Below are positions 1,307 through 62,961 of a DNA stretch of 64,000 nt, piece after piece. The translations under genes were made by a program, and so were the position numbers. Where the stretch lies: the IMG/VR virus record IMGVR_UViG_3300015607_002835, positions 6,976 through 70,975 of that record; one strand, given 5' to 3'. The notes beneath the pieces were generated by a model. The model saw only the letters and a list, made by a program, of their open reading frames with translations. It made no database searches and was not told where the DNA came from. Source of the DNA: a virus. Its lineage: Duplodnaviria > Caudoviricetes. The stretch's first letter is position 1, and each line of letters begins with the position of its first letter.

Positions 1307-2167
1307 TTATCCGTAGAAGTTAGGAGATTTGTTTTTGGTCGTTAAACCAGTTGATTGGTAATGCAAATCGACAGTGAACAGGAACGGCGCTGCCGAGCTT
1401 CCACCGGTAATGGTTGGAATAGTGACCACGTTGTAGTTGATCAAGAACAGGCCGTCAACTTCAATGTTGTTGGTGTTTATTCTTCCGCCTGCCCCACCGG
1501 CTGCTGAAAGTTGGATTTCATCAACACGATGGATGTACTGTGGAGAGTTCGTAATGTTGAGCGATGGAACGTTCAGTGATAGTGTCAATGGAGAAGAGAA
1601 AGCTATTTGATTGTGCCCCTTCGCATAGGTGACAGTGAAATCAACTCTAAACGCACCAGAAATGTTGGTGCCGTTATGACCCCAATGCACGTGAATGAAC
1701 AAATCCGTGCCTGGTGCGTAGTCATGCGGAACGTGGAAACGTGTATCTCCTTGATCGTTTGCAATGTACGAATATTCTCTGATTGACCCAACAAAGTTTC
1801 TTAGTGTCGGCGCATTGGTTCCGCCAGTTCACGGAGTGACATCACCAGTAAGGTCATGCCACCCATAGGAGTTTTCAATTTTTATCCCGATACCTGATGT
1901 TTTTGGAAAGCTCAACGACCCTAAAATGTTATCGCCCGCTTTATTGAGAGGGACAAAACCTAAATTATCAATTATCTGTTGGTATGATCCTGCAGCCCCA
2001 GAAGATGCTGCAACCCAACTTGAGCCATTATGCACCATTAATCCATCGGTGGTATGGAAAAATAGTTCGCCAATATTTGGATTTATTGGGTACTCAGCCC
2101 CATGGGCCGCCGTCAGATTTTTAACATCTGATCCTTCTGAAAGTGTAACGTTTCCATAAATTTTCAT
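1307..2167 (-). CDS. Virion structural protein interrupted by one in-frame TGA (1829-1831); readthrough or nonsense allele
   Basis: Track ORFs 1829-2197 and 1307-1702 share a frame and only the TGA separates them. Likely ATG at 2167 (AGGA upstream). The N-terminus (LSEGSDVKNLT..P..GELF) resembles that of the 33810 fibre protein. Confidence 0.65.
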
Positions 2168-2438
2168 TATTTTCCTATTAACGCCTGCCAGATACATCTA
2201 TGCAACTGCAGGTCGTCACACAGAAATATAAAATACCTGGTATTTATTTAGAAAACGTCAAAATGGTTCTTTAACATATCCACCATTAAGGATAACGAAA
2301 CGCTCGATTGATGCAAAACTTAATTTAGATTCAGTAAATTGAGCGAGCTTATTATTAAGCAATCGATGCTTAATAATTGGAAAAACGATTGTGATACGCT
2401 CATTATTGAGCGTAACGATTTCAGAAACAAATTGCATT

Positions 2439-5318: not shown

Positions 5319-6503
5319 TTAACCGTTTCCAGAGAAAGAAAGAGAATCAAGTTGAATTCGCATTGCGCTTGTGACGCAGCCGATTACGTACGGCTTTTTG
5401 CCGAGATTTTGGATAACTTCAGCAGGAACATCAAGAGTGGCAAACTGTTGGCCGTCTACTACAGCTGTTAGTTTAGATTCGGCATACGTCAAAACTAAGC
5501 TGAAGAATGGTCCACTCGTTGGAGATTCAGCAACTTCAGGAGCGACAGCAGGAGTACTTAAATTTGCGGTCGAAACTTCTTTAGCTTTAGAGACCAGCTC
5601 TGGTGAAGACACATTAAACTTGCACATGTTCGGCGTGACGTTTGAGATTCCACCGGGTAACGAGGAAACTGAAGACAAAATACTTGACTTGGTGTTTCCA
5701 GATGCTGATCCAAGTATTGAGCTTGCTGAGCTCTTTAGGCTATCAACTTTAGATGTCAGGTCTTTCAATGTTTCAGGCGTAACCATAGAAGAAAGAGCAC
5801 CTGTAACAAATCCAACTTTACTACCCAACGATGCGAGTTGTGTAGACGCCGTCGAAATCGCACTATTGACCGCCGTTAAAGCTGCTTGGCCTGCTGCAGA
5901 AATTACTCCATTTGCCGCTGAGTTTGCAGAGGTTATGAGCTTATTGAAAAAATCTTTGCTTGACGTTGAACTTAGCCCAGTGCTGCTAAAAATCCCATCG
6001 CTATTAGTGTTTTGAACTTCAGCATCTTTCGAAAGTTTTCCGTCCTCAGTGACGTACGGTTCATACGATAGAATTGACGGAGGAAAATAAGCATTCACTG
6101 ATCTAAACGATTCAAGAGTCCCGTTTACTGCACCAAATGAGTTGTCTTTACCACAATAAATCGCGCAAATAGATGAGGTAACGTCAATTATATCCGGAGA
6201 ATCTGAAAATGGCTGATTTAGTATCCCAAAATAAGCAACATTGCCATTTTCAGGTTTACGTCCATCGGCCGCCTTCTTGAATCGAATATTCATAGTCCAA
6301 GAAGTTAGCTTGGATATTGGTGCCCCTTGAAGGTTTAAGAATACACCGCCATCCTCGTTAATTTTCAGAACTCCCCAGTATTTTTCGTCTGGACCAATAC
6401 CTTCAAAATCTTGATTTGTCGAAATGTTGAAGACATTAAGCTCTTGGAACGTCTTGATGCTTTTCTGGCTGAAGTCTTCAGCCATTGAAAAATTGATACT
6501 CAT
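5319..6503 (-). CDS. Hypothetical protein with S/A low-complexity middle region
   Basis: ATG at 6503 overlaps upstream stop (ATGA). Confidence 0.5.
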   Translation of the reverse strand: MSINFSMAEDFSQKSIKTFQELNVFNISTNQDFEGIGPDEKYWGVLKINEDGGVFLNLQGAPISKLTSWTMNIRFKKAADGRKPENGNVAYFGILNQPFSDSPDIIDVTSSICAIYCGKDNSFGAVNGTLESFRSVNAYFPPSILSYEPYVTEDGKLSKDAEVQNTNSDGIFSSTGLSSTSSKDFFNKLITSANSAANGVISAAGQAALTAVNSAISTASTQLASLGSKVGFVTGALSSMVTPETLKDLTSKVDSLKSSASSILGSASGNTKSSILSSVSSLPGGISNVTPNMCKFNVSSPELVSKAKEVSTANLSTPAVAPEVAESPTSGPFFSLVLTYAESKLTAVVDGQQFATLDVPAEVIQNLGKKPYVIGCVTSAMRIQLDSLSFSGNG

Positions 6504-24866: not shown

Positions 24867-26036
24867 TTACTTCGATTGAACGACCAGCTTCTGGTACAGT
24901 TCCTTCTTCATGTTGCCAATAGAAGCCGACATTTGCTTGCGTTGTGCTTCGCCTTCAGCTTCAATCTTTTTCATTTCTTCGAAGGTCGAAATCAGGGTAG
25001 TCTGCATGTGTTGCAGAGATTCCAGATCAATAATGCTGCGCTGGTTGGAGCGAGCAACGGAAATTGCATTTTCACCGAGCATGTCTGCGTTTGCCTTGTA
25101 GAAATCGTTGGTCGCATCGTCAACGGTTTGTGCAAGATGAGCTGCTTTCTTCTGTTCGTCGAGAGAAACGGCCAGAATAAATTGCTTCTTCCATGCAGGA
25201 ATCGTCAAGGTCTTCGCGTTGTTGAACTTCTCGATCAACATTTGATTGTTGGACTGGATCATGCGAATTTCAGGCATCGCATGTACCGCCATCATTTGGC
25301 AAGCTTCAAGGTCAGACAGTCGCTTGCTGAAACGACCGATGCGAGCTTGCCAGTCAGTGTAGCTTTGGGCCGCGATCGGATCATTGATCTTACCGGTCAG
25401 AACCGCTTCGTTGCGTTGTTCTTCGAAGGTTTCTTGTTGAAGCTTGAGAAATTCCTTACCCTCGGTCAAGAGAATTTCCAGCTCGTTGTACTCAGCCATG
25501 TTGTGATCATACAGCTGATCCAGCAGCTTGATACGCTTTTCAAGTGCTTCATTCGTATTGTCCAGCTCGCCGATGACCTTGTCGATTTGGTCTTTCAGAG
25601 AGTTGAACTTAGCAACGAACTTGTCACGACGCTTGTTGAACGAATCAATCAAACCGCCGATCAACGGAATCTTGGAAGAGGTTCCATTCAGATCGGAGAC
25701 GTTCAGCTCTTTCGCGATCGAAACAATTGAAACAAGCTTGTCGCCGACTTGACCAGTGGAAGAAGTTTTCACATATTCGAGAACTTCATCTGCAAACTTT
25801 GCGACGTTCTCTTGAGCCTTCGCACCGTAGTTCGAAATAGAGACCGGATTGGAAAGGTCGAGATTTGCGATAGCAGTAGAGGTTTGGCGATTACCACGAC
25901 CAATCGATTGCTTGGTAGTAATCTGACCGACTGATTGTTGGACCGCGATATTTTGCTGAACCGCAGTCTTCATTTGGTCCAGAGTTGCGGTGGCAGATTG
26001 TGCAGCAGGTTGTTGAGCGAAAAGAGGTTTCGGCAT
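24867..26036 (-). CDS. telA: TelA/KlaB toxic-anion resistance protein
   Basis: I.NYGA.AQ, LD.LY..N..EY..L, TIP.WK.Q, N.F...NA..L. Confidence 0.85.
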   Translation of the reverse strand: MPKPLFAQQPAAQSATATLDQMKTAVQQNIAVQQSVGQITTKQSIGRGNRQTSTAIANLDLSNPVSISNYGAKAQENVAKFADEVLEYVKTSSTGQVGDKLVSIVSIAKELNVSDLNGTSSKIPLIGGLIDSFNKRRDKFVAKFNSLKDQIDKVIGELDNTNEALEKRIKLLDQLYDHNMAEYNELEILLTEGKEFLKLQQETFEEQRNEAVLTGKINDPIAAQSYTDWQARIGRFSKRLSDLEACQMMAVHAMPEIRMIQSNNQMLIEKFNNAKTLTIPAWKKQFILAVSLDEQKKAAHLAQTVDDATNDFYKANADMLGENAISVARSNQRSIIDLESLQHMQTTLISTFEEMKKIEAEGEAQRKQMSASIGNMKKELYQKLVVQSK

Positions 26037-26055
26037 TTAAGTCATCCTTGAAAAG

Positions 26056-27162
26056 TTAAGCAGCTTCCGCGGCTTTGATCGTCATTATATCACAAATAGA
26101 TTTTGAAAGTAAATCTTTATTTTTCTGAACGTTGTCAAAATTATTCGACGTGATTGCAGAAATCAGGCTTTGCTTCCACAACGGAATAAGGCTTGTCATC
26201 ATGTTGCTAAGGTTTTCAACCATCTTCACGTTGGTGGATTGTGTCATTCGAATCTGAGCAAGAGTCAGTTCATTCTGACCTACGGTGAGCTCAAGAGTTT
26301 CAATTCGCTTGACAAAGCTTTGGTAAATGTCAATCTCGTCGCGAGCATTTTGTGCAATCATGGTGTTAGTACCTTGCAACTGCTCTTCGAGCTTGGATAG
26401 CTTACGGCGTTGGAACACCTTGATTCGATCTTTGCCAGCAGCAATTGCGATGATCAGGTCCGCATGATAGCTCTTGCTACGATCAAGAAGATCATCAAGC
26501 TTTGGAACAAGGTCAAGGAAGAATTTTACATTCGACTCAATTGAATTGACGACGTTGTCAATTTCAGAAATGACGTCATTGATACGCTCTTCAAGAGACC
26601 GCTTCTTCTTAAACACTGAGAAAAACCCGCCATCTTCTTCCTGAGCAGGGTTGAAGTTGATAAGGCTCTTCAGCTTATTGACGTCAACCGATACGCGAGA
26701 ATTGAAAGAATTGGATTTAGCAAATTCCAAAATATCGTCAACAGCTTTGGCAAGTTTTTTGTTTAGGTCTTGACCGAACTGGAGAACTGAAACTCGATCA
26801 GAAATATCGATGGTTTCGGATTGATCTTTAATCTTGACAATCTCGCGAGCCGTAAATCCCTTGTAACGGATCATATCGTCAGGAGTAACTTCAGACTCGA
26901 CATTCCCTTTAGGTTTAAACAACGGAGCAGGAGTTTCATGTACTTTCTTTTTCTCCTCAACAGTGGGTTTTTGGACCACTGGAGGAACAAATGTTCCTGG
27001 CTGTTTCTTTGGTTGAAGATTCGTCTCCAACACAACTTTGCCGCTCTTCGAATCAGAAACCGTAAACTTGCCAACGAAATCTGTAGTCGCAGGCTTAGTT
27101 TTAGTTTCTTCTTTCTTAGGCGGCAAATTATCAGTGGTAAACAGCGCTTTTGGCACGTACAT
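26056..27162 (-). CDS. Divergent TelA-like paralogue
   Basis: QFG.DL, QIR..Q..N..MVE, LIPLWKQ; adjacent to telA. Confidence 0.65.
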   Translation of the reverse strand: MYVPKALFTTDNLPPKKEETKTKPATTDFVGKFTVSDSKSGKVVLETNLQPKKQPGTFVPPVVQKPTVEEKKKVHETPAPLFKPKGNVESEVTPDDMIRYKGFTAREIVKIKDQSETIDISDRVSVLQFGQDLNKKLAKAVDDILEFAKSNSFNSRVSVDVNKLKSLINFNPAQEEDGGFFSVFKKKRSLEERINDVISEIDNVVNSIESNVKFFLDLVPKLDDLLDRSKSYHADLIIAIAAGKDRIKVFQRRKLSKLEEQLQGTNTMIAQNARDEIDIYQSFVKRIETLELTVGQNELTLAQIRMTQSTNVKMVENLSNMMTSLIPLWKQSLISAITSNNFDNVQKNKDLLSKSICDIMTIKAAEAA

Positions 27163-28831: not shown

Positions 28832-30544
28832 TCAATTCCGGTTGCTTGAAACATCAAATTCGTCTCGCCACACATTGAGAGGGCTATTGAAAAGACGCTG
28901 TGCATTTGCATCAAGAATGTAAGTTACTGCGTAGTCATCCATACTTCGAACTGAACGGCCGCCACCTTGAACAATCTTCTGAATAGTGAGAAGATTGTAA
29001 ATATTTGGGTGATGTTCGAGAATATACTTCATTCTCTTCTCAGCCAACGACGGGAATGGAGCCTTCACAATGATTTGATAACGACTGTGATCACCTGGAA
29101 GGTCAACACCTTCATAAATTGATGGTGACAGCATTATCTTTGGTCCCTTTGACTTCTTGAACTTCTCGATTAGCTCATCAGCCTTCATACCACGAGTGTG
29201 TTCAAAGACCTCAAAGTCTGGAAGCTTAAGAGAACGAACCACTTTAGCAAGACGCTCAGTCACTACAAAACTTGGGGTAAGGATAATTCCATTTTCTTGA
29301 AATTGTTTCACGTGCGTGTCAACAATTTGTTTAACGCTTTCACATAAGTTATTGATTGTTTTCTCATCTTGCATTGAACGATAGTTCAAATTCTGAGTGT
29401 TGAAGAACATTATGTGCTTATGCTCTTTGGGGAAAGTAGGATCAACCTTGATGAATTCAACTTTATTCGGATCAATCTTAAGGGTTTCAGTGATGTAATC
29501 CTTGGAGATTGTCGCAGACATGAAGAGGTTAAACTCAGAGTGAACGAGGGTTTGCTCAAACATACTACCAATGAAGATCGGCTTTACTGTCGCCTCCATC
29601 GTCTCCTTGTTGAATTCGAAAATATGCTCATAGTTGTAAATGAGCAGATCGTCGATTTTGCAACCTAGGCCACGGTACTTATTTGCAAGCTTAGAATACT
29701 TGGTGTACTTGTTGATGTCATAACCAGACTCTTCACACAGGCGTTGGGCCTCATTGAATGCCGTGTTATAGACTTCGTGAAGAACTTTAAGATAGCCCTT
29801 ATAGCTGGATTCGTCAATTTTACCAGCTTCTAGGTCTTGTTGAACCTTTTTGAGCCGCTTGAACATTTCAAGATCGCCAAGTTTGAGATTCTCAGCAAGT
29901 TCTTCATAGAACTTCTTCAATCGTTCCTTCGAAAAGTAAATTGCATTGTGCTCACAGAAGGCATCGTTGATAGTGTGTGCTTCGTCCCAAATTACAACAT
30001 CACGAACTTCGAAAATATCGGAGTATTGACGATCGACAAAGTAGTAGCTGAAGTTAGTGATAACATTCTTAGAGTCATTTTTCATCCTCTTTAGAATTTG
30101 ATACTCGCATTTGTTGCAGTACTTTGACGTGATGTCTGTCAATCCTTCCTTTCGGAATTTTTGAAGAGCACAACTTTCAGCAGAAATCTTTCCGTCTGGG
30201 CCATCAGTTGAAAGTGCCTCACATGCGTAGTTGTTGGCACCTTTAAGTTGCAAAAAGCAATGCTTACCAAACTTAGAGAAAGTCTGGTAATATTGCTTTG
30301 TTAGTGCATTGTTATGCATAAGAATCAAAGACGCGAGCTTTGATCCTCTTAGAGCATTGATTACATCAGCAATGACCGCACCAATGATAGACTTACCGGT
30401 ACCTGTTGGTGCATTGAGAACAACGTAAGGTTTTTGTCGATCTACAAAGGCTTCGATTACTTCATTGATGTATTTGACTTGGTTTTCTCTTGGAGCCATT
30501 TGCAACTTTTTGAATGACTCCAAGATTTCGTTTTCATACTTCAT
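28832..30544 (-). CDS. DinG/XPD-like SF2 helicase
   Basis: [27 protein letters not shown]; Cys residues for an FeS cluster. Confidence 0.85.
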
Positions 30545-31763
30545 TAACTGCTTCCTTTTCGGTATAGACTAGCTTGGGGCTTTGACCCTTAGTCACGACC
30601 TTTTCGGAAACAATTACCTTTTCAACGTGATCCAAATCAGGGATAGTAAACATCGTTTCGCGCAAGCAGCGCTCAATAATTGCACGCAGGCCGCGGGCAC
30701 CAGTCTTATTTTCATAGGCAAGCTTAGCAACGGCTTTGATTGCCTTTTCTTCGAACTCAAGTTCAACACCGTCAAGTTCAAGTAGAGCTTGATATTGCTT
30801 GAGTATGGAATTTTTTGGTTCAGTCAGGACACTGCAAAGAGCCGCTTCATCTAGTTCCGTGAGTTGACAAACAACGGGGAAACGACCGATGAATTCTGGA
30901 ATTAGTCCAAACTCTTGAAGATCATCCGGAGTTACATCTTTAGTTTTTGTCTTCTTTTCGGTTTTCTTCTCAACGATTCCCGCAAAACCCATAGTTGGAC
31001 GATCATCCTTTTCGACGATTTCATCGAGGCCAACAAAGGCGCCGGCCGCAATGAATAGGATGTTCGTAGTATCAATGAATTCAGCTTGAGAACCTGGAGT
31101 TTTACGACCGCCGGTCAATTGAACTCGAGCATTCGTACCCTCAACAATCTTCAAAAGAGCCTGTTGAACGCCTTCGCCTGACACGTCGCGAGTAATTGAT
31201 GGACCAGAACCCTTTTTAGCGATCTTATCGATTTCATCAATGAAGATGATACCATGTTTTGCCTTTTCGTGATCACCGTCGGCAGCAAGAATCAAACGTT
31301 GAAGGATAGTTTCGACGTCATCACCAACATAACCGGCTTCGGTCAAAGAAGTCGCATCTGCAATCGTAAATGGAACATCCAAGAACTTTGCGATGGTTTG
31401 GGCCAAAAGAGTCTTACCAGTACCTGTCGGACCAGCCAAAAGAATATTGGCTTTTTGAATGTCGACTGGGGACTTCAAAATATTCTTTTTGTTGATACGC
31501 TTATAGTGATTGTAAACTGCAAGAGCCAAAACTTTCTTTGCTTCATCTTGACCAACAATGAACTGATCGAGATGCGCTACCAATTCGCTAGGAGAAAACT
31601 TGCGATCGGTTTTAGCATTCTTTTTTGCAGCTTTGACCTCTTCTTCGTGTAGCAAAGAATGAGTCAAATCAACACATTCGTTACAAATGAAGAAGTCTCC
31701 AGCTTTCAGCAGCTTTTGAACTTGATCCTTGGTCTTCTCGCAAATAGAGCAGTGTTGAGACAT
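30534..31763 (-). CDS. clpX: ATP-dependent Clp protease ATPase subunit ClpX
   Basis: N-terminal C4 zinc finger, [54 protein letters not shown]. Confidence 0.95.
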
Positions 31764-39970: not shown

Positions 39971-41578
39971 TTAGAACTGGCTGATCAGCTGCGGAGCAGC
40001 GGAGTCGAAGCCAACGATGTCAAGCATACCAGCATCCTTCGGATCAGCGATGGAGAAGTTGGTGGTGGAAGTACCAGCCACGATCAACTTACCCTTACCG
40101 TACTGATCACGGTATTGCTTGAGCGCCTGGACCGGTTGGATGCGACCAGCCCAAGTTTCGTTGTCAGTGTAGACACAGAACTTGTCAACGTTCATCTTAT
40201 GCTTCAGCGCGTACAACATTGGCTGAGCGCAATCAGTGCCGCCCCAGTTGAAGTGCTGCATGATCTTCAACACTTGATCCAAACGCATATTCGGAGAAAT
40301 CTTCAGTTCAGACATGGTAGTGTCGAAACCACCGATCCAGTAATTGGATTCAACCTTTGCGGTAGCCAATGCCATAACAGCAGCAGCTTCAGCAGAAGTA
40401 AGATTGTTGATACCCATACAGCGGGCGCCGAACATGGAACCAGAACAGTCGATACCAAGCAGGTAGTTTTCACCGGAAGGCTCGATATTCTTGAAAGAAG
40501 CGTAGAACGCGTCATTCAATGCATCAACAACCTTCTGAGAAACACGCCAAGTCATGGAACCCTTGTCGCCGCGGCCTTGTTGGTAGGTCTTCATCGCGGA
40601 CAGAAGAGTGATCGGGTGAACACGACCATTCTTCAAAGCTTCAGCATCGCTCAAGCGAGCAACAGCCAGCTTTTCGCCTTCAGACAGACCAGCGATTACG
40701 CCATTGGCAGACATTCGACCCAAGTTGCGGATCAAAGCGGTGACACCCATGGTCGGGAGCAGAGCTTCCCAAACCTTAGAATCAGTCAACACTTGGGTTG
40801 GCAACATTTCCCAGGTCAGACCATAATCGCGAACTGCCTTAACGGCATTAGCAACAGACGGATTCTTGTGCAGTTCTTCGAACACCAAGAAGAGTTGAGG
40901 CAACTTGGCATTATCGAGATGCTTGCGATCATTGGTAACCCAATGGAACATCGCGTTGTGAGAATCGGTAGTCGGCTTGACGTGAGCAAGACGCAGAACG
41001 TCGCGATGAGACCAGCCATTACGTTGTTGATACTTCAACAACTGCATAGCGAGCTTGTCTTCTTGACGAGCATACCACTTGGCAACACCACGCTTAGCGT
41101 AACCACGCCACTTACCAAACTTGTTGTAAGCTTCCATGAAGGAGAACAAGTGGGTACCGATACGGCAGACCTTACCAAGGTTAGCGAAAGCATGTTCCGC
41201 AACTTCCTTGTTTTCGGATGCAGCAGCCAGAGCCATCACGAAGATAGCTGGATCGTTCTTGAAAGCACGACCTTGGTCGGAGATTTCAATGACGCGATCA
41301 ACTGCGCGCTTACCGTTTTCCTTGATACATGCGATAACGTTCTTCGCGTTGTCCAGGGTTACGTTCTTTTCAGAAGCGTAATAATGGCCGCCTTCAGAGC
41401 CAAGGATCAAGAAGCGGTCAAATTGACCCCACTTGTCCATAACGAAGGTGTAACCACCTGCGTTATTCTTTGCCATTTCAGCCTCGCGGCCAGGAATTGG
41501 CTTGCTTTGAGCAGTTGCCTTTGGATTGAGTTCGCCATCGAGGATATCGGAATAACGAGCGGTTGCGTTCTTAGCCAT
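39971..41578 (-). CDS. rsr: Ro60/Rsr (TROVE + vWA) RNA-binding protein
   Basis: NNAGGY.F, RFLILGSEGG.YY, KYQQR.GWSHRD.LRL.H, LPM-like TALIRNL, RVHP, DCSGSM, GGTDCA.PM, YTDNETWAG, GFD. Confidence 0.93.
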   Translation of the reverse strand: MAKNATARYSDILDGELNPKATAQSKPIPGREAEMAKNNAGGYTFVMDKWGQFDRFLILGSEGGHYYASEKNVTLDNAKNVIACIKENGKRAVDRVIEISDQGRAFKNDPAIFVMALAAASENKEVAEHAFANLGKVCRIGTHLFSFMEAYNKFGKWRGYAKRGVAKWYARQEDKLAMQLLKYQQRNGWSHRDVLRLAHVKPTTDSHNAMFHWVTNDRKHLDNAKLPQLFLVFEELHKNPSVANAVKAVRDYGLTWEMLPTQVLTDSKVWEALLPTMGVTALIRNLGRMSANGVIAGLSEGEKLAVARLSDAEALKNGRVHPITLLSAMKTYQQGRGDKGSMTWRVSQKVVDALNDAFYASFKNIEPSGENYLLGIDCSGSMFGARCMGINNLTSAEAAAVMALATAKVESNYWIGGFDTTMSELKISPNMRLDQVLKIMQHFNWGGTDCAQPMLYALKHKMNVDKFCVYTDNETWAGRIQPVQALKQYRDQYGKGKLIVAGTSTTNFSIADPKDAGMLDIVGFDSAAPQLISQF

Positions 41579-56604: not shown

Positions 56605-56934
56605 TCATGACGTGTACTCAATAATCTTTATTGGTGTTGCCTTAATTCCATCTTGACATACTTCGCATGGACATGCTGGCATAGGTTTACCGTCTTTGGA
56701 ATATCGAAAGATACTTATCTTATGGGCCTTTGAAATATCACGACATTTAATGATAGCATCTATCTCAGCATGCAAAAATATCTTTTCTTCCCGTCCAACA
56801 TTTTTCGCGTGGTGTGCCTGCATCGGGTGAGTTTTGACATAGGAGTTCTTCCCTATGCTGAGAATTCGCCCTCTTTTATCATAGATGATTGCGGTGAGGT
56901 CGTACTGTCTTTTTGATTTTTTACTTTTATACAT
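56605..56934 (-). CDS. Zn-dependent cytidine/dCMP-deaminase-fold protein
   Basis: HAEIDAI and PCxxC (CPCEVC). Confidence 0.75.
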   Translation of the reverse strand: MYKSKKSKRQYDLTAIIYDKRGRILSIGKNSYVKTHPMQAHHAKNVGREEKIFLHAEIDAIIKCRDISKAHKISIFRYSKDGKPMPACPCEVCQDGIKATPIKIIEYTS

Positions 56935-57380
56935 TCAAACCACTGTTGTTTTTCTTCTAAAATCTTCAATCCTCCTTTGAGGTTAAAGCTTTCACCAATC
57001 GTTAGATCGTCGATTCGGTCTCTTAGCTCATCCAAGCAAAGATTAATGAATTCCTCAACACTTTTCTCAGCGTATCCTTTAATGTTCAACACCAATTGTC
57101 CGACATCGTGATATGGTTTAAACCAATCGTTCTCGCCAAAAGACGAAACTTTGATCATCAAGAAATGATTTATTTCGTCTTGACCGGTAATTGGATCAAA
57201 TCTGAAACGTACACCATCAGAGTTTGTTGCATTACGTTTGTGGATGACTACTGATGACGATAGGATTGCCAAATCTTTTGGTAACGACATTGGCTGAACG
57301 CTAACAATCTCTTGTGCAATAACACTTGGCATAATCCTTCTAATTTTTGGTAGAAGAACATTGCTCCACGGAGAGCTCAT
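56853..57380 (-). CDS. Small protein whose N-terminus resembles the T4 gp23 Gol segment
   Basis: KIRRIMPSVIAQEIVSVQPM vs gp23 MVRRAIPNLIAFDICGVQPM. Confidence 0.6.
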   Translation of the reverse strand: MSSPWSNVLLPKIRRIMPSVIAQEIVSVQPMSLPKDLAILSSSVVIHKRNATNSDGVRFRFDPITGQDEINHFLMIKVSSFGENDWFKPYHDVGQLVLNIKGYAEKSVEEFINLCLDELRDRIDDLTIGESFNLKGGLKILEEKQQWFECIKVKNQKDSTTSPQSSMIKEGEFSA

Positions 57381-58185
57381 CGACGTTTCTTCCAGTCATA
57401 ATCAGGTCCGACCACGTCGAAGCCTTGCTTACCAACACAATTTGGATTTTCTGATGACATCACAATAAACCCAATGTTTTCACCAGCATATTTACGCTGT
57501 CGAATAGATTCTGAAAACTTTAAAGCTTCAGACATTTTGTCAGATTCGAACAACTGACTGTTTGGGACAGAATTTTCTGTCCAGTAAATCATGTACATCA
57601 AATTTCCTTAACTTCGTCGATTTCGTAATTGGTCTCACATCTGTTGTACAATTCGTATGAAAGAGAATAGTACGCGCCCGTAAATTTTTCTTCAGGGATA
57701 AGGTCAAACAGGCCAATTGACCGCGCATATTCAAATTCTGCTTCTATCCGACGTTTACGATGTTCAGCATTTTTTGCGGCGTTTCGCTGCATGACTCCGT
57801 TATTGAATTCACGGATAGTCTCACGCTCAATGCGCATTTCTTTAGTGATTAGCTTCTGAGCGATCCCACTTGGCCATTTTGGGACATCAACAACCTTTTC
57901 AAGGGTGGTTTGATCAAATGGATTAGCTTCATCCCAGCGATCGCAAAACTCCTGAATTTGCTGCTTACAAACTTTGAGCTTTTCTCGCCGCTCTTCCTTG
58001 TTGACTTTCAGTTGCTCAATTTTGGATTTATCGGTAGATGCGGCAACATTAGCACACCAAGCGTCTTCATAGGACCCACCAAAAGCAATAAGGATAAAAA
58101 TCATATCATCATCTCCTGAATTTTGTGAAATTATATCATAAGTCTCAGGAAAAGAAAATAGGGGAGAATTTTCTCCCCTATGATT

Positions 58186-58872
58186 TTACCAAAGAAGATC
58201 AAAGTTACCAGCGAGAACCTTTGATGTCAAATGACGTTTTCCTGTTTGATGATCTTGAACGACATCGTCTTGGAATCGATAAGTTCTAATCTTATCTCCT
58301 CTCATACCAGAACCAACTTGATCTGACCGAATAGAATTAGAAATCATAAAATTTTCTAATCCCATTTGTTGATCTAATTCCGCAACTAAAGACTCTTTAG
58401 CTAAACGTAAACTGTTTTGTCTTGATCTTGTTTGCGCGGTCTTCACTATTCCAGATGGAAGGTGTGTTAACCTACATGAAGACAATATTTTATTACGATT
58501 CTGACCGCCACATCCAGTACCAGAGTACCACTCTATCTTGAAGTCTGATTCTGATCGTTTGTGGAATTTTTCAGAACTTTTGTCATTACAGTCCATGACT
58601 GCGACAGTTACGGTTGAGGTATGAACTCGACCTTTTCGTTCTGTGGGTGGAACTCGCTGAATGCGATGCCCACCTGATTCATTTTTGAGTTGGCTGAAGA
58701 ACTCTTTACTACACTCTATCTCTAAAGTTGTTACGCCGGGTACTTCAACCTTTTTAGGATTGAGTCAACCGACGCGATTAAGGAACTTAGAGTAAGCTTG
58801 AGCAAGGTCCTTAACGAACAACTTGCTATCGTCGCCGCCTTCAGCGGCTCTAATTTCGATCTTAACGCGCAT
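58186..58872 (-). CDS. RF1-type peptide chain release factor lacking domain 1, with one in-frame TGA at 58765-58767
   Basis: AAGGAG RBS and ATG at 58872; EIRA..GGD..LF..DL...Y, ESGGHRIQRVPPT (PxT), HTS, GGQ; continuous frame except codon 36. Confidence 0.9.
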
Positions 58873-58904
58873 TATTTTCTCCTTATGTTAGTAGATCGTT
58901 TTGA

Positions 58905-59910: not shown

Positions 59911-60249
59911 TCATACAAACTCCTGATGATCCAGTTTAGAACGTAAGGAAGCTTGTTTGTTTTTATTAGCTGGTTGACCTGTACCGCTTTCATCATGCGA
60001 AAATAACCCGTAAAGATAGACAACATTCTTTTCTACCTTATAGATCACACTCACATCAAATGAGAGCTTGGCATGCCAAAACCCTGAAAAATTTCCAGAT
60101 CCAGAAAAGGGATAATCACTTGAACCGAATTTCTCAGTTGGATGATCCTTCTTCCAATTAACAAATTCTTTAAACTTGGATTGTATTTGTTTAGTAGCTT
60201 TTGCGAATGTTTTATCGAATAGCTTACATTTTTTAAATAGTGCCGTCAC
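59911..60249 (-). CDS. RelE/YafQ-like toxin (mRNA interferase)
   Basis: F.K.F.K, DYPFSG, G.WHAKL..D..IY, GLFSHDE; probable GTG start at 60249 with GAGG RBS. Confidence 0.65.
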   Translation of the reverse strand: MTALFKKCKLFDKTFAKATKQIQSKFKEFVNWKKDHPTEKFGSSDYPFSGSGNFSGFWHAKLSFDVSVIYKVEKNVVYLYGLFSHDESGTGQPANKNKQASLRSKLDHQEFV

Positions 60250-60403
60250 TTTCAAGAGCCTCGAAAAGCTCATCGGCAGTCAAGGCATCAGACCATTCGC
60301 CGCTCTGTTCCTGCTGTGCCAGTTCTTCTTTGAGACCGGAAGCTTCAATTCCCGCAACAAGCGTTTGCTCTTGCAGGAACTGGGTGAGGGTTGTATTAGC
60401 CAT
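60233..60403 (-). CDS. Small acidic protein, candidate antitoxin (56 aa)
   Basis: Not in ORF track. MANTTLTQFLQEQ...EWSDALTADELFEALESDGTI; AGGAG RBS; overlaps the toxin start. Confidence 0.55.
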   Translation of the reverse strand: MANTTLTQFLQEQTLVAGIEASGLKEELAQQEQSGEWSDALTADELFEALESDGTI

Positions 60404-62887: not shown

Positions 62888-62961
62888 TGGCAGAGCTAGA
62901 GAGAATCGAACTCCCATCTGCGGACTTGGAAACCGTTATGTTACCACTACACCATAGCCCT
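62888..62961 (-). tRNA. tRNA-Trp(CCA) with non-canonical anticodon stem
   Basis: A1-U72, G73, Trp-type T stem GGGAG/CTCTC; anticodon arm ACGGT-TTCCAAG-TCCGC. Confidence 0.8.

Follow-up and report, generated by a model that had tools for sequence, protein, structure and literature searches.

An in-frame UGA conserved in the short RF1-type release factor gene of large phages as a probable readthrough gate

How, and to what end, would a phage make a release factor from a gene that is interrupted, at one of the conserved residues of the factor, by a stop codon which this very type of factor does not recognize? RF1 reads UAA and UAG but not UGA, whereas UGA is read by RF2 and UAA by both factors. 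The question is posed by a gene on the minus strand of a 64,000-nucleotide stretch of viral DNA (the window), which is part of an IMG/VR contig of 70,975 bp. A sequence-only reading of the window had described the gene as a sensor of UGA readthrough that could bias the infected cell toward the use of UGA as a sense codon. Of this proposal we retain the first part, as we find a real RF1-type gene that needs UGA readthrough, and abandon the second. The reading that we favor, and hold to be probable though well short of certain, is that the gene encodes an RF1-type class-I factor devoid of domain 1, that the factor is made by programmed UGA readthrough, probably with Trp at the stop, and that the UGA serves as an RF2-sensing gate.

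A release factor gene divided at codon 36

An ATG at 58872-58870 on the minus strand opens a frame of 228 sense positions that closes with TAA at 58188-58186, and its sole in-frame stop is a TGA at 58767-58765, codon 36, in the context GGT TGA CTC. The sequence and the ORF list thus bear out the frame, the lone TGA and the AAGGAG ribosome binding site that had been noted before. Under table 11 the gene appears only as two ORFs of 35 aa (58765-58872) and 136 aa (58186-58596), the latter being the one previously remarked upon. The upstream gene stops 32 nt ahead of the ATG. The features of the locus are the following.

58186-58872, minus strand: short RF1-type gene, with RF domains 2-4 and without domain 1 (ORFs, Pfam, PDB match, AF2 model)
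58879-58884, minus strand: Shine-Dalgarno sequence AAGGAG, 6 nt ahead of the ATG (read in the sequence)
58768-58872, minus strand: codons 1-35, 5' of the proposed gate, with strand 2-11 and helix 13-34 of domain 2 and a conserved GG(D/E)D segment (pN/pS, model)
58765-58767, minus strand: in-frame UGA, codon 36, at the conserved RF1 Trp; the proposed gate (alignment, relatives)
58186-58764, minus strand: codons 37-228 and the stop, carrying PPT and GGQ (pN/pS, motifs in the alignment)
58642-58650, minus strand: PPT (PxT), residues 75-77, 3' of the UGA (read in the sequence)
58501-58509, minus strand: GGQ, residues 122-124, 3' of the UGA (read in the sequence)
58158-58181, minus strand: strong intrinsic terminator directly 3' of the gene, with a stem of 10 bp ahead of a run of T (sequence)
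58742-58765, minus strand: small local hairpin, UCAAUCCU / AGGUUGA, beginning inside or just after the UGA (folding)
62888-62961, minus strand: phage tRNA-Trp(CCA), 4 kb upstream on the same strand, candidate UGA reader (tRNA structure)

The Pfam matches of the conceptual read-through product span the UGA, with PCRF (PF03462) at residues 3-90 (E 9e-24, 84.8 bits) and RF-1 (PF00472) at residues 107-208 (E 9e-16, 58.4 bits), both over the cut-off. In a HMMER comparison with the PDB, residues 4-225 align to residues 89-314 of Thermotoga maritima RF1 (E 9e-36) and the UGA falls on the Trp of the 'KGW' of this protein, which confirms that the stop occupies a conserved RF1 Trp. The assignment to RF1 rather than RF2 follows from three comparisons: RF1 chains in the PDB are matched with E values of 9e-36 to 3e-29 versus 2e-20 to 3e-15 for RF2 chains, Foldseek identity is 32-33% to RF1 versus 24-29% to bacterial RF2, and the recognition tripeptide is of the PxT type and not the SPF of RF2. 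The PDB RF1 matches begin at RF1 residue 89-113, and therefore domain 1 is missing. In cellular factors this N-terminal domain comprises about 110 residues and contacts the L11 stalk and RF3.

Among the homologues E6, G12, G13 and D15 are invariant, and PPT and GGQ are invariant or nearly so. An AlphaFold model of the read-through product, built from 50 homologues, has a pLDDT of 90.4 and superimposes on ribosome-bound RF1 with TM scores of 0.88-0.90 and an rmsd of 2.2-2.3 Å. In this model the β-strand 2-11 and the helix 13-34 precede the UGA and are part of one domain together with the sheet that follows it, so that neither fragment corresponds to a folding unit. Moreover, by their coordinates both PPT and GGQ lie downstream of the UGA, in agreement with the earlier statement that an active factor requires readthrough. 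As judged from sequence, the gene is a class-I release factor of the RF1 type, and its release activity at UAA and UAG is predicted.

Conservation of the UGA and genetic code of the phage

Of the 277 loci that a scan of IMG/VR brought to light, the best 80 were retained (54-83% amino acid identity); in all 80 of these best of 277 viral loci codon 36 is TGA, three apparent exceptions having turned out to be alignment shifts. A second scan, for which the divergent member L065 was the seed, retrieved 26 full-length loci, of which 18 lie on contigs new to the first scan, and again the gate codon is TGA in 26 of 26. Whether homologues alternate between TGA and TGG, as the sequence-only reading had wished to see examined, can thus be answered: across the 106 relatives checked in DNA they never do. 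The Trp codons 115 and 228, on the other hand, are TGG in all relatives with the residue there (73 and 72 of 73). Across the relatives, codons 2-35 evolve with a pN/pS of 0.13-0.22 and codons 37-228 with one of 0.18-0.31; as read from these ratios, purifying selection acts on both sides of the UGA, and with no relaxed selection downstream the TGA is not a private nonsense allele. A stop that is conserved in diverged relatives and followed by purifying selection in the same frame is the pattern that defines programmed readthrough.

The codon preceding the UGA is always Gly (GGN in 73 of 73 relatives), whereas the codon that follows it varies. The base after the UGA is A, G or C but never T, a bias that may also reflect protein constraint; in E. 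coli, termination at UGA is strongest when a U follows. The UGA-C context to which significance had been attached is hence not a conserved property of the family. The window gene (L001, 58186-58872) and its nearest relative L002 (65994-66677 of the 359-kb relative G001) differ by a dS of 0.095 in codons 2-35 and of 0.98 in codons 37-228 taken together, and their DNA is near-identical to at least 60 nt past the TGA. Such mosaic divergence points to recombination or to a constraint at the nucleotide level around the gate.

Among GenBank phages, blastn of the region gave no match and the relatives found by tblastn are all below 40% identity. In protein databases the family is represented by full-length entries of 222-229 aa on short contigs and by truncated calls of 136-190 aa on long contigs. 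The full-length entries, which show W at the site, might have been taken for TGG alleles; this was rejected, as all 106 DNA-checked relatives have TGA. The short contigs were probably called with a TGA=Trp model, and if so protein databases mask the stop. This carries a warning for annotation, since gene callers truncate such genes or, on short contigs, probably translate the TGA as Trp.

What kind of phage carries the gene? With a CheckV completeness of 20% the contig is a fragment, and its relatives are phages of 318-369 kb, three of them with terminal repeats; five large relatives (G001 to G005) are 100% (four) or 91% (one) complete according to CheckV. We take the source phage to be roughly 350 kb in size. 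Along with 11 tRNAs, the window has genes for topoisomerase II subunits, ClpX, two TelA proteins and a Ro60/TROVE protein; the Ro60/TROVE protein with a vWA domain, the two TelA-like proteins and the ClpX-like ATPase are located at 39971-41578, 24867-27162 and 30534-31763, all on the minus strand. All five large relatives have a tmRNA, which in G004 (160426-160939) lies 54 nt from the gated RF gene (160993-161598) and in G002 about 2 kb from it.

TGA is in regular use as a stop in these phages. It terminates 38-39 of about 113 genes of the contig (34%; UAA, 58%), the frames close quickly past these terminal TGAs, and tight ATGA overlaps occur. In each of the five large relatives TGA serves as terminator 102-224 times and about 90% of the DNA is coding under table 11. 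A gene-versus-genome comparison of the contig and three large relatives revealed no recurrent in-frame TGA or TAG, and neither the contig nor the five large relatives have a tRNA(UCA). Nor do the five large relatives encode RF2, each having a single RF-domain gene, the gated RF1. By these measures the phage uses the standard code and is not one of the code-4 or TGA-recoded phages. The suggested bias of the cell toward UGA as sense falls with this, as TGA ends 34-42% of the phage's genes, other conserved in-frame TGAs were not found, and RF1 does not compete at UGA.

Several further signals were followed up. Apparent TAG-to-Gln reassignment at 20.5-22.3 kb of the window proved to be the shadow of minus-strand genes, a stricter gene-based scan showing no recoding. 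A second in-frame TGA suspected near the ORF 59911-60273 lies before the ATG of this ORF, whose G001 homologue need not start earlier, and a YafQ/RelE toxin identity of the same ORF found no support in Pfam or PHROGs. Three other loci deserve mention as observations in their own right. At position 6002 (+) of contig G000, outside the window, a TGA is aligned to Arg in a 55%-identical match to a 382-aa gene of G001, which could reflect either a genuine stop within the frame or the edge of a gene. At window positions 1307-2197 (minus strand) a 122-aa ORF, the N-terminus of which weakly resembles a virion structural protein (PHROG E 5e-4), terminates at a TGA (1829-1831), past which its frame stays open for another 173 codons; this could represent a second readthrough or two genes. 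Finally, a 175-aa ORF at 56853-57380 (minus strand) resembles the T4 Gp23 major capsid profile (E 9e-7) over no more than its initial 36 positions, and may have a prohead-targeting leader on an unrelated protein.

How the gate would work, and what else the UGA could be

As the frame is continuous, no frameshift is needed to pass the UGA. In our favored reading most ribosomes would terminate at codon 36, because host RF2 reads UGA, and would release a 35-residue fragment, while a minority would insert an amino acid and go on to complete the 228-residue factor. The inserted residue would most likely be Trp, delivered by tRNA-Trp(CCA) with a C:A mismatch in the third position. It is from the alignment that this identity is deduced, the position being occupied by Trp in cellular RF1; in bacteria, moreover, UGA is classically read as a near-cognate codon by tRNA-Trp(CCA). 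Being of the RF1 type, the product cannot read UGA and therefore cannot close its own gate, so that its output would be set only by the balance between RF2 activity and UGA-decoding tRNA. With RF2 alone closing the gate and tRNA-Trp opening it, full-length output should rise whenever RF2 falls short of demand. We therefore regard RF2 sensing, not autoregulation, as the best reading of the gate. Its most likely use would be that of a cross-sensor: overloaded or scarce RF2 would lead to more of the short RF1, which would take over termination at UAA and UAG and thereby free RF2 for UGA, in a simple negative feedback. This homeostatic purpose is suggested by the logic of the circuit.

Does RNA structure contribute to passage of the UGA? 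The hairpin to which the sequence-only reading had drawn attention does exist, but it is weak, with a folding energy of -5.2 kcal/mol (z -1.6) that is matched by 16 of 200 shuffles, and in both the window gene and L002 it starts 2-3 nt after the UGA, which is too close for it to act on a ribosome holding the UGA in the A site. It is thus probably not a stimulator of readthrough. In the major subclade, a hairpin of the form CGCC.GAUA ... UAUC..GGCG follows the UGA after a 6-nt spacer; 77% of its cells are paired and 28 are double-change cells, values that were reached by 0 of 500 shuffles. The hairpin of L019 has a z of -5.4. The 6-nt-spacer hairpin is not formed in the window gene or in its nearest relative L002, and RNAalifold found no family-wide consensus structure around the UGA. 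A stimulatory RNA structure is accordingly not supported for the window locus, and we do not count it as part of it.

The main rival to RF2 sensing is that the UGA is a plain attenuator, which would keep a possibly harmful factor at a low and constant level, a few per cent of initiations, without conveying any information on RF2 or tRNA. Readthrough would be needed for this too, and the weakness of the hairpin in the window gene, the variation of the base after the UGA among A, G and C, and the lack of a universal partner tRNA are all as such a passive device would have them. However, a weak ribosome binding site or promoter would serve equally well and would drift, yet the TGA is invariant in about 100 diverged genes, and in distant lineages the stop occupies other sites but is always TGA, the one stop that RF1 cannot read. 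This invariance, together with the sameness of the codon across sites, argues for a role of codon identity, and we consider the plain attenuator unlikely, if a good deal more than a formality.

Could the gate instead be a timer that is opened mainly by the phage itself, once its tRNA-Trp(CCA) accumulates after expression of the tRNA cluster? The tRNA-Trp gene of the window has features that make this worth considering. Its product has A24 opposite U11 and mismatches at A27/C43 and U31/U39, leaving three Watson-Crick pairs in the anticodon stem, and the anticodon loop is UUCCAAG. The copy in G001 has an identical anticodon arm, while its acceptor pairs 3:70, 6:67 and 7:66 are changed yet still paired, from which it follows that the tRNA-Trp is maintained by selection. 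In one relative, L028, a short-stem tRNA-Trp directly adjoins a canonical one. A mismatch at 27:43 is found in 6 of 13 distinct phage tRNA-Trp versus 66 of 522 other tRNAs (Fisher p 0.004, the sequences being related to one another), and it is enriched in tRNA-Lys, tRNA-Met and amber suppressors as well.

There is experimental precedent for such a tRNA. According to Fakih et al. 2026 (PMC13092985), E. coli tRNA-Trp(CCA) unpinned at 27:43, and thus left with a 4-bp anticodon stem, brings about a roughly 2.5-fold increase of UGA readthrough in vivo, and the G24A (Hirsh) tRNA-Trp is noted in the same paper to have a like effect. The window tRNA resembles these variants in its unpaired 27:43 and in A24 opposite U11. 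It differs from them in the additional U31/U39 mismatch and in the UUCCAAG loop, and in being phage-encoded in a standard-code setting, where its UGA reading is predicted. By analogy, it probably raises the basal opening of the gate in the window clade, and the earlier suggestion that a UGA-reading tRNA-Trp could open the gate has in this sense gained support.

As the principal switch, however, the tRNA fares less well. The tRNA-Trp gene is absent from the complete relatives G003 and G005 and is canonical or near-canonical in two others (canonical in G004), yet TGA is kept in all of these, which means that the phage tRNA cannot be a general requirement. Furthermore, a strong reader of UGA would also extend the third of the phage proteins that end in UGA. 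A timer run by the phage tRNA thus appears improbable to us. Concerning other unusual tRNAs of these phages, four of the five large relatives (G001, G003, G004 and G005) carry one or two tRNAs with a CUA anticodon, i.e. amber suppressors, as do L008, L023, L034, L050 and L062; in-frame use of TAG was not detected. The 27:43 mismatch occurs in half of the distinct CUA-tRNA copies, and the pairing of an amber suppressor with a UAG-reading factor in one phage is a curious combination.

The remaining explanations carry little weight. That the locus specifies two products, a 35-aa peptide and a C-terminal fragment made by reinitiation or from an internal start, might be suspected from the 136-190-aa C-terminal ORFs that gene callers report on long contigs. 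But the relatives have no conserved start codon near the UGA, and in the window gene the next ATG is codon 93, after the PPT; reinitiation is thus unlikely. Moreover, strand 2-11 and helix 13-34 share a domain with the downstream sheet and both parts are conserved in one frame, so that we give this alternative very little credence. Insertion of selenocysteine, directed by a SECIS-like hairpin downstream, could draw on the major-subclade hairpin with its 6-nt spacing and some covariation, and on the z of -5.4 of the L019 hairpin. It is nevertheless scarcely believable, as the site is Trp in the cellular RF1 homologues, the window clade has no conserved hairpin and the family no consensus structure, and in other lineages the TGA occupies other sites. 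In one sequence, a single in-frame TGA at a Trp site would be expected of a sequencing error, of a pseudogene, and of a phage or host that uses code 4 (TGA=Trp). Hardly any of these would give a TGA kept under purifying selection in about 100 independent assemblies of phages that use TGA as a frequent true stop, with ATGA overlaps and about 90% coding under table 11, and they can be set aside as next to impossible.

Wider distribution and relation to known systems

In-frame stops in short RF1 genes extend beyond the family of the window. The short RF1 genes of the 630-735-kb phages LR745206 and LR756501/2/4 (37-39% identity) have one or two in-frame TGAs, of which one coincides with the Trp site and the rest fall at different points of domain 2, and their neighboring genes read normally. 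These loci (L137-L140, L143 and L144) belong to phages of Al-Shayeb et al., which look standard in code, as in the local regions the coding density hardly differs between tables 11 and 4. The short RF1 of LR756511 has no in-frame stop. Among bacterial homologues lacking domain 1, some carry the TGA at this very site, including those of Pararhizobium, Thalassospira, Jiella, Rhodovibrio, Kiloniella and Sphingomonas MAGs, and in Variovorax, a Cupriavidus plasmid and two MAGs the TGA comes about 11 codons later. On three contigs from a single Myxococcales MAG the site encodes Tyr and the gene is free of in-frame stops. Wherever a stop was seen in the short RF1 genes examined, phage or bacterial, it was TGA, never TAA or TAG. 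The neighbors of the bacterial copies are mostly ORFans, although a YqaJ recombinase adjoins the copy on the Cupriavidus plasmid and two tRNA genes adjoin that of Variovorax; the bacterial copies could represent prophages or mobile elements of another kind, and could give a clue to hosts. Those from isolate genomes (Pararhizobium, Thalassospira, Jiella, Rhodovibrio and Variovorax) and from the 307-kb Cupriavidus plasmid are L197, L201, L205-L207, L216 and L217.

To our knowledge, regulated recoding within a release factor gene has one textbook case, the +1 frameshift of prfB. The gated RF1 shares with prfB that a release factor gene has an early in-frame UGA, the bypass of which is, or would be, inverse to RF2 activity. 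Different from prfB however, the frame of the window gene is continuous, and neither a CUU-UGA-C slip site nor a fixed SD-like element is present: the context is GUC GGU UGA CUC, with no AGGAGG-type element within the 12 nt before the UGA. And since its product is of the RF1 type, the proposed loop would be a cross-sensor, unlike the autoregulation of prfB. A resemblance also exists to the read-through A1 protein of phage Q-beta, which arises when a small proportion of the ribosomes decode UGA as Trp by means of ordinary tRNA-Trp. There, a coat protein is extended past its natural end, whereas the window UGA lies inside a single folded domain and its short product is probably useless. PrfH and ArfB, too, lack RF domain 1 and keep GGQ. 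They match only the GGQ domain of the window protein (E 7.6e-07 or weaker), which retains PxT and the whole of domain 2.

Phage-borne class-I factors located among tRNA genes are known from recoded and huge phages. A full-text literature search found phage RF1 and RF2 reported in such phages and nowhere an account of a UGA within the RF1 gene of a phage. In the searched text of Borges et al. (10.1101/2021.08.26.457843) and Al-Shayeb et al. (PMC7162821), RF1 is described in TGA-recoded Jade phages, with its own gene in standard code, or release factors are merely listed, and an internal UGA in a phage RF goes unmentioned. The Jade phages are TGA-recoded, whereas the window phage uses the standard code.

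If our reading is correct, the gene would be a second and differently wired case of recoding after prfB, in which an RF1-type factor is gated by a codon that only RF2 reads. About 100 uncultivated large phages have conserved the UGA, which reappears at different positions in distant lineages, and the gate would provide a natural and compact UGA-readthrough cassette that is amenable to reporters. For the short-anticodon-stem tRNA-Trp it offers a possible natural use in a standard-code setting. More broadly, and as a tentative idea to which we would give somewhat less than even chances, the short RF1 of large phages and mobile elements may repeatedly have gained an early UGA, at several different codons and always as the one stop that RF1 does not read, to serve as a sensor of RF2 sufficiency that would replenish the capacity for termination at UAA and UAG on demand, paired in some clades with a short-stem tRNA-Trp(CCA) that sets the leak. 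Sensor and tRNA-Trp would then make up a compact phage unit by which termination is balanced against readthrough in a cell using the standard code.
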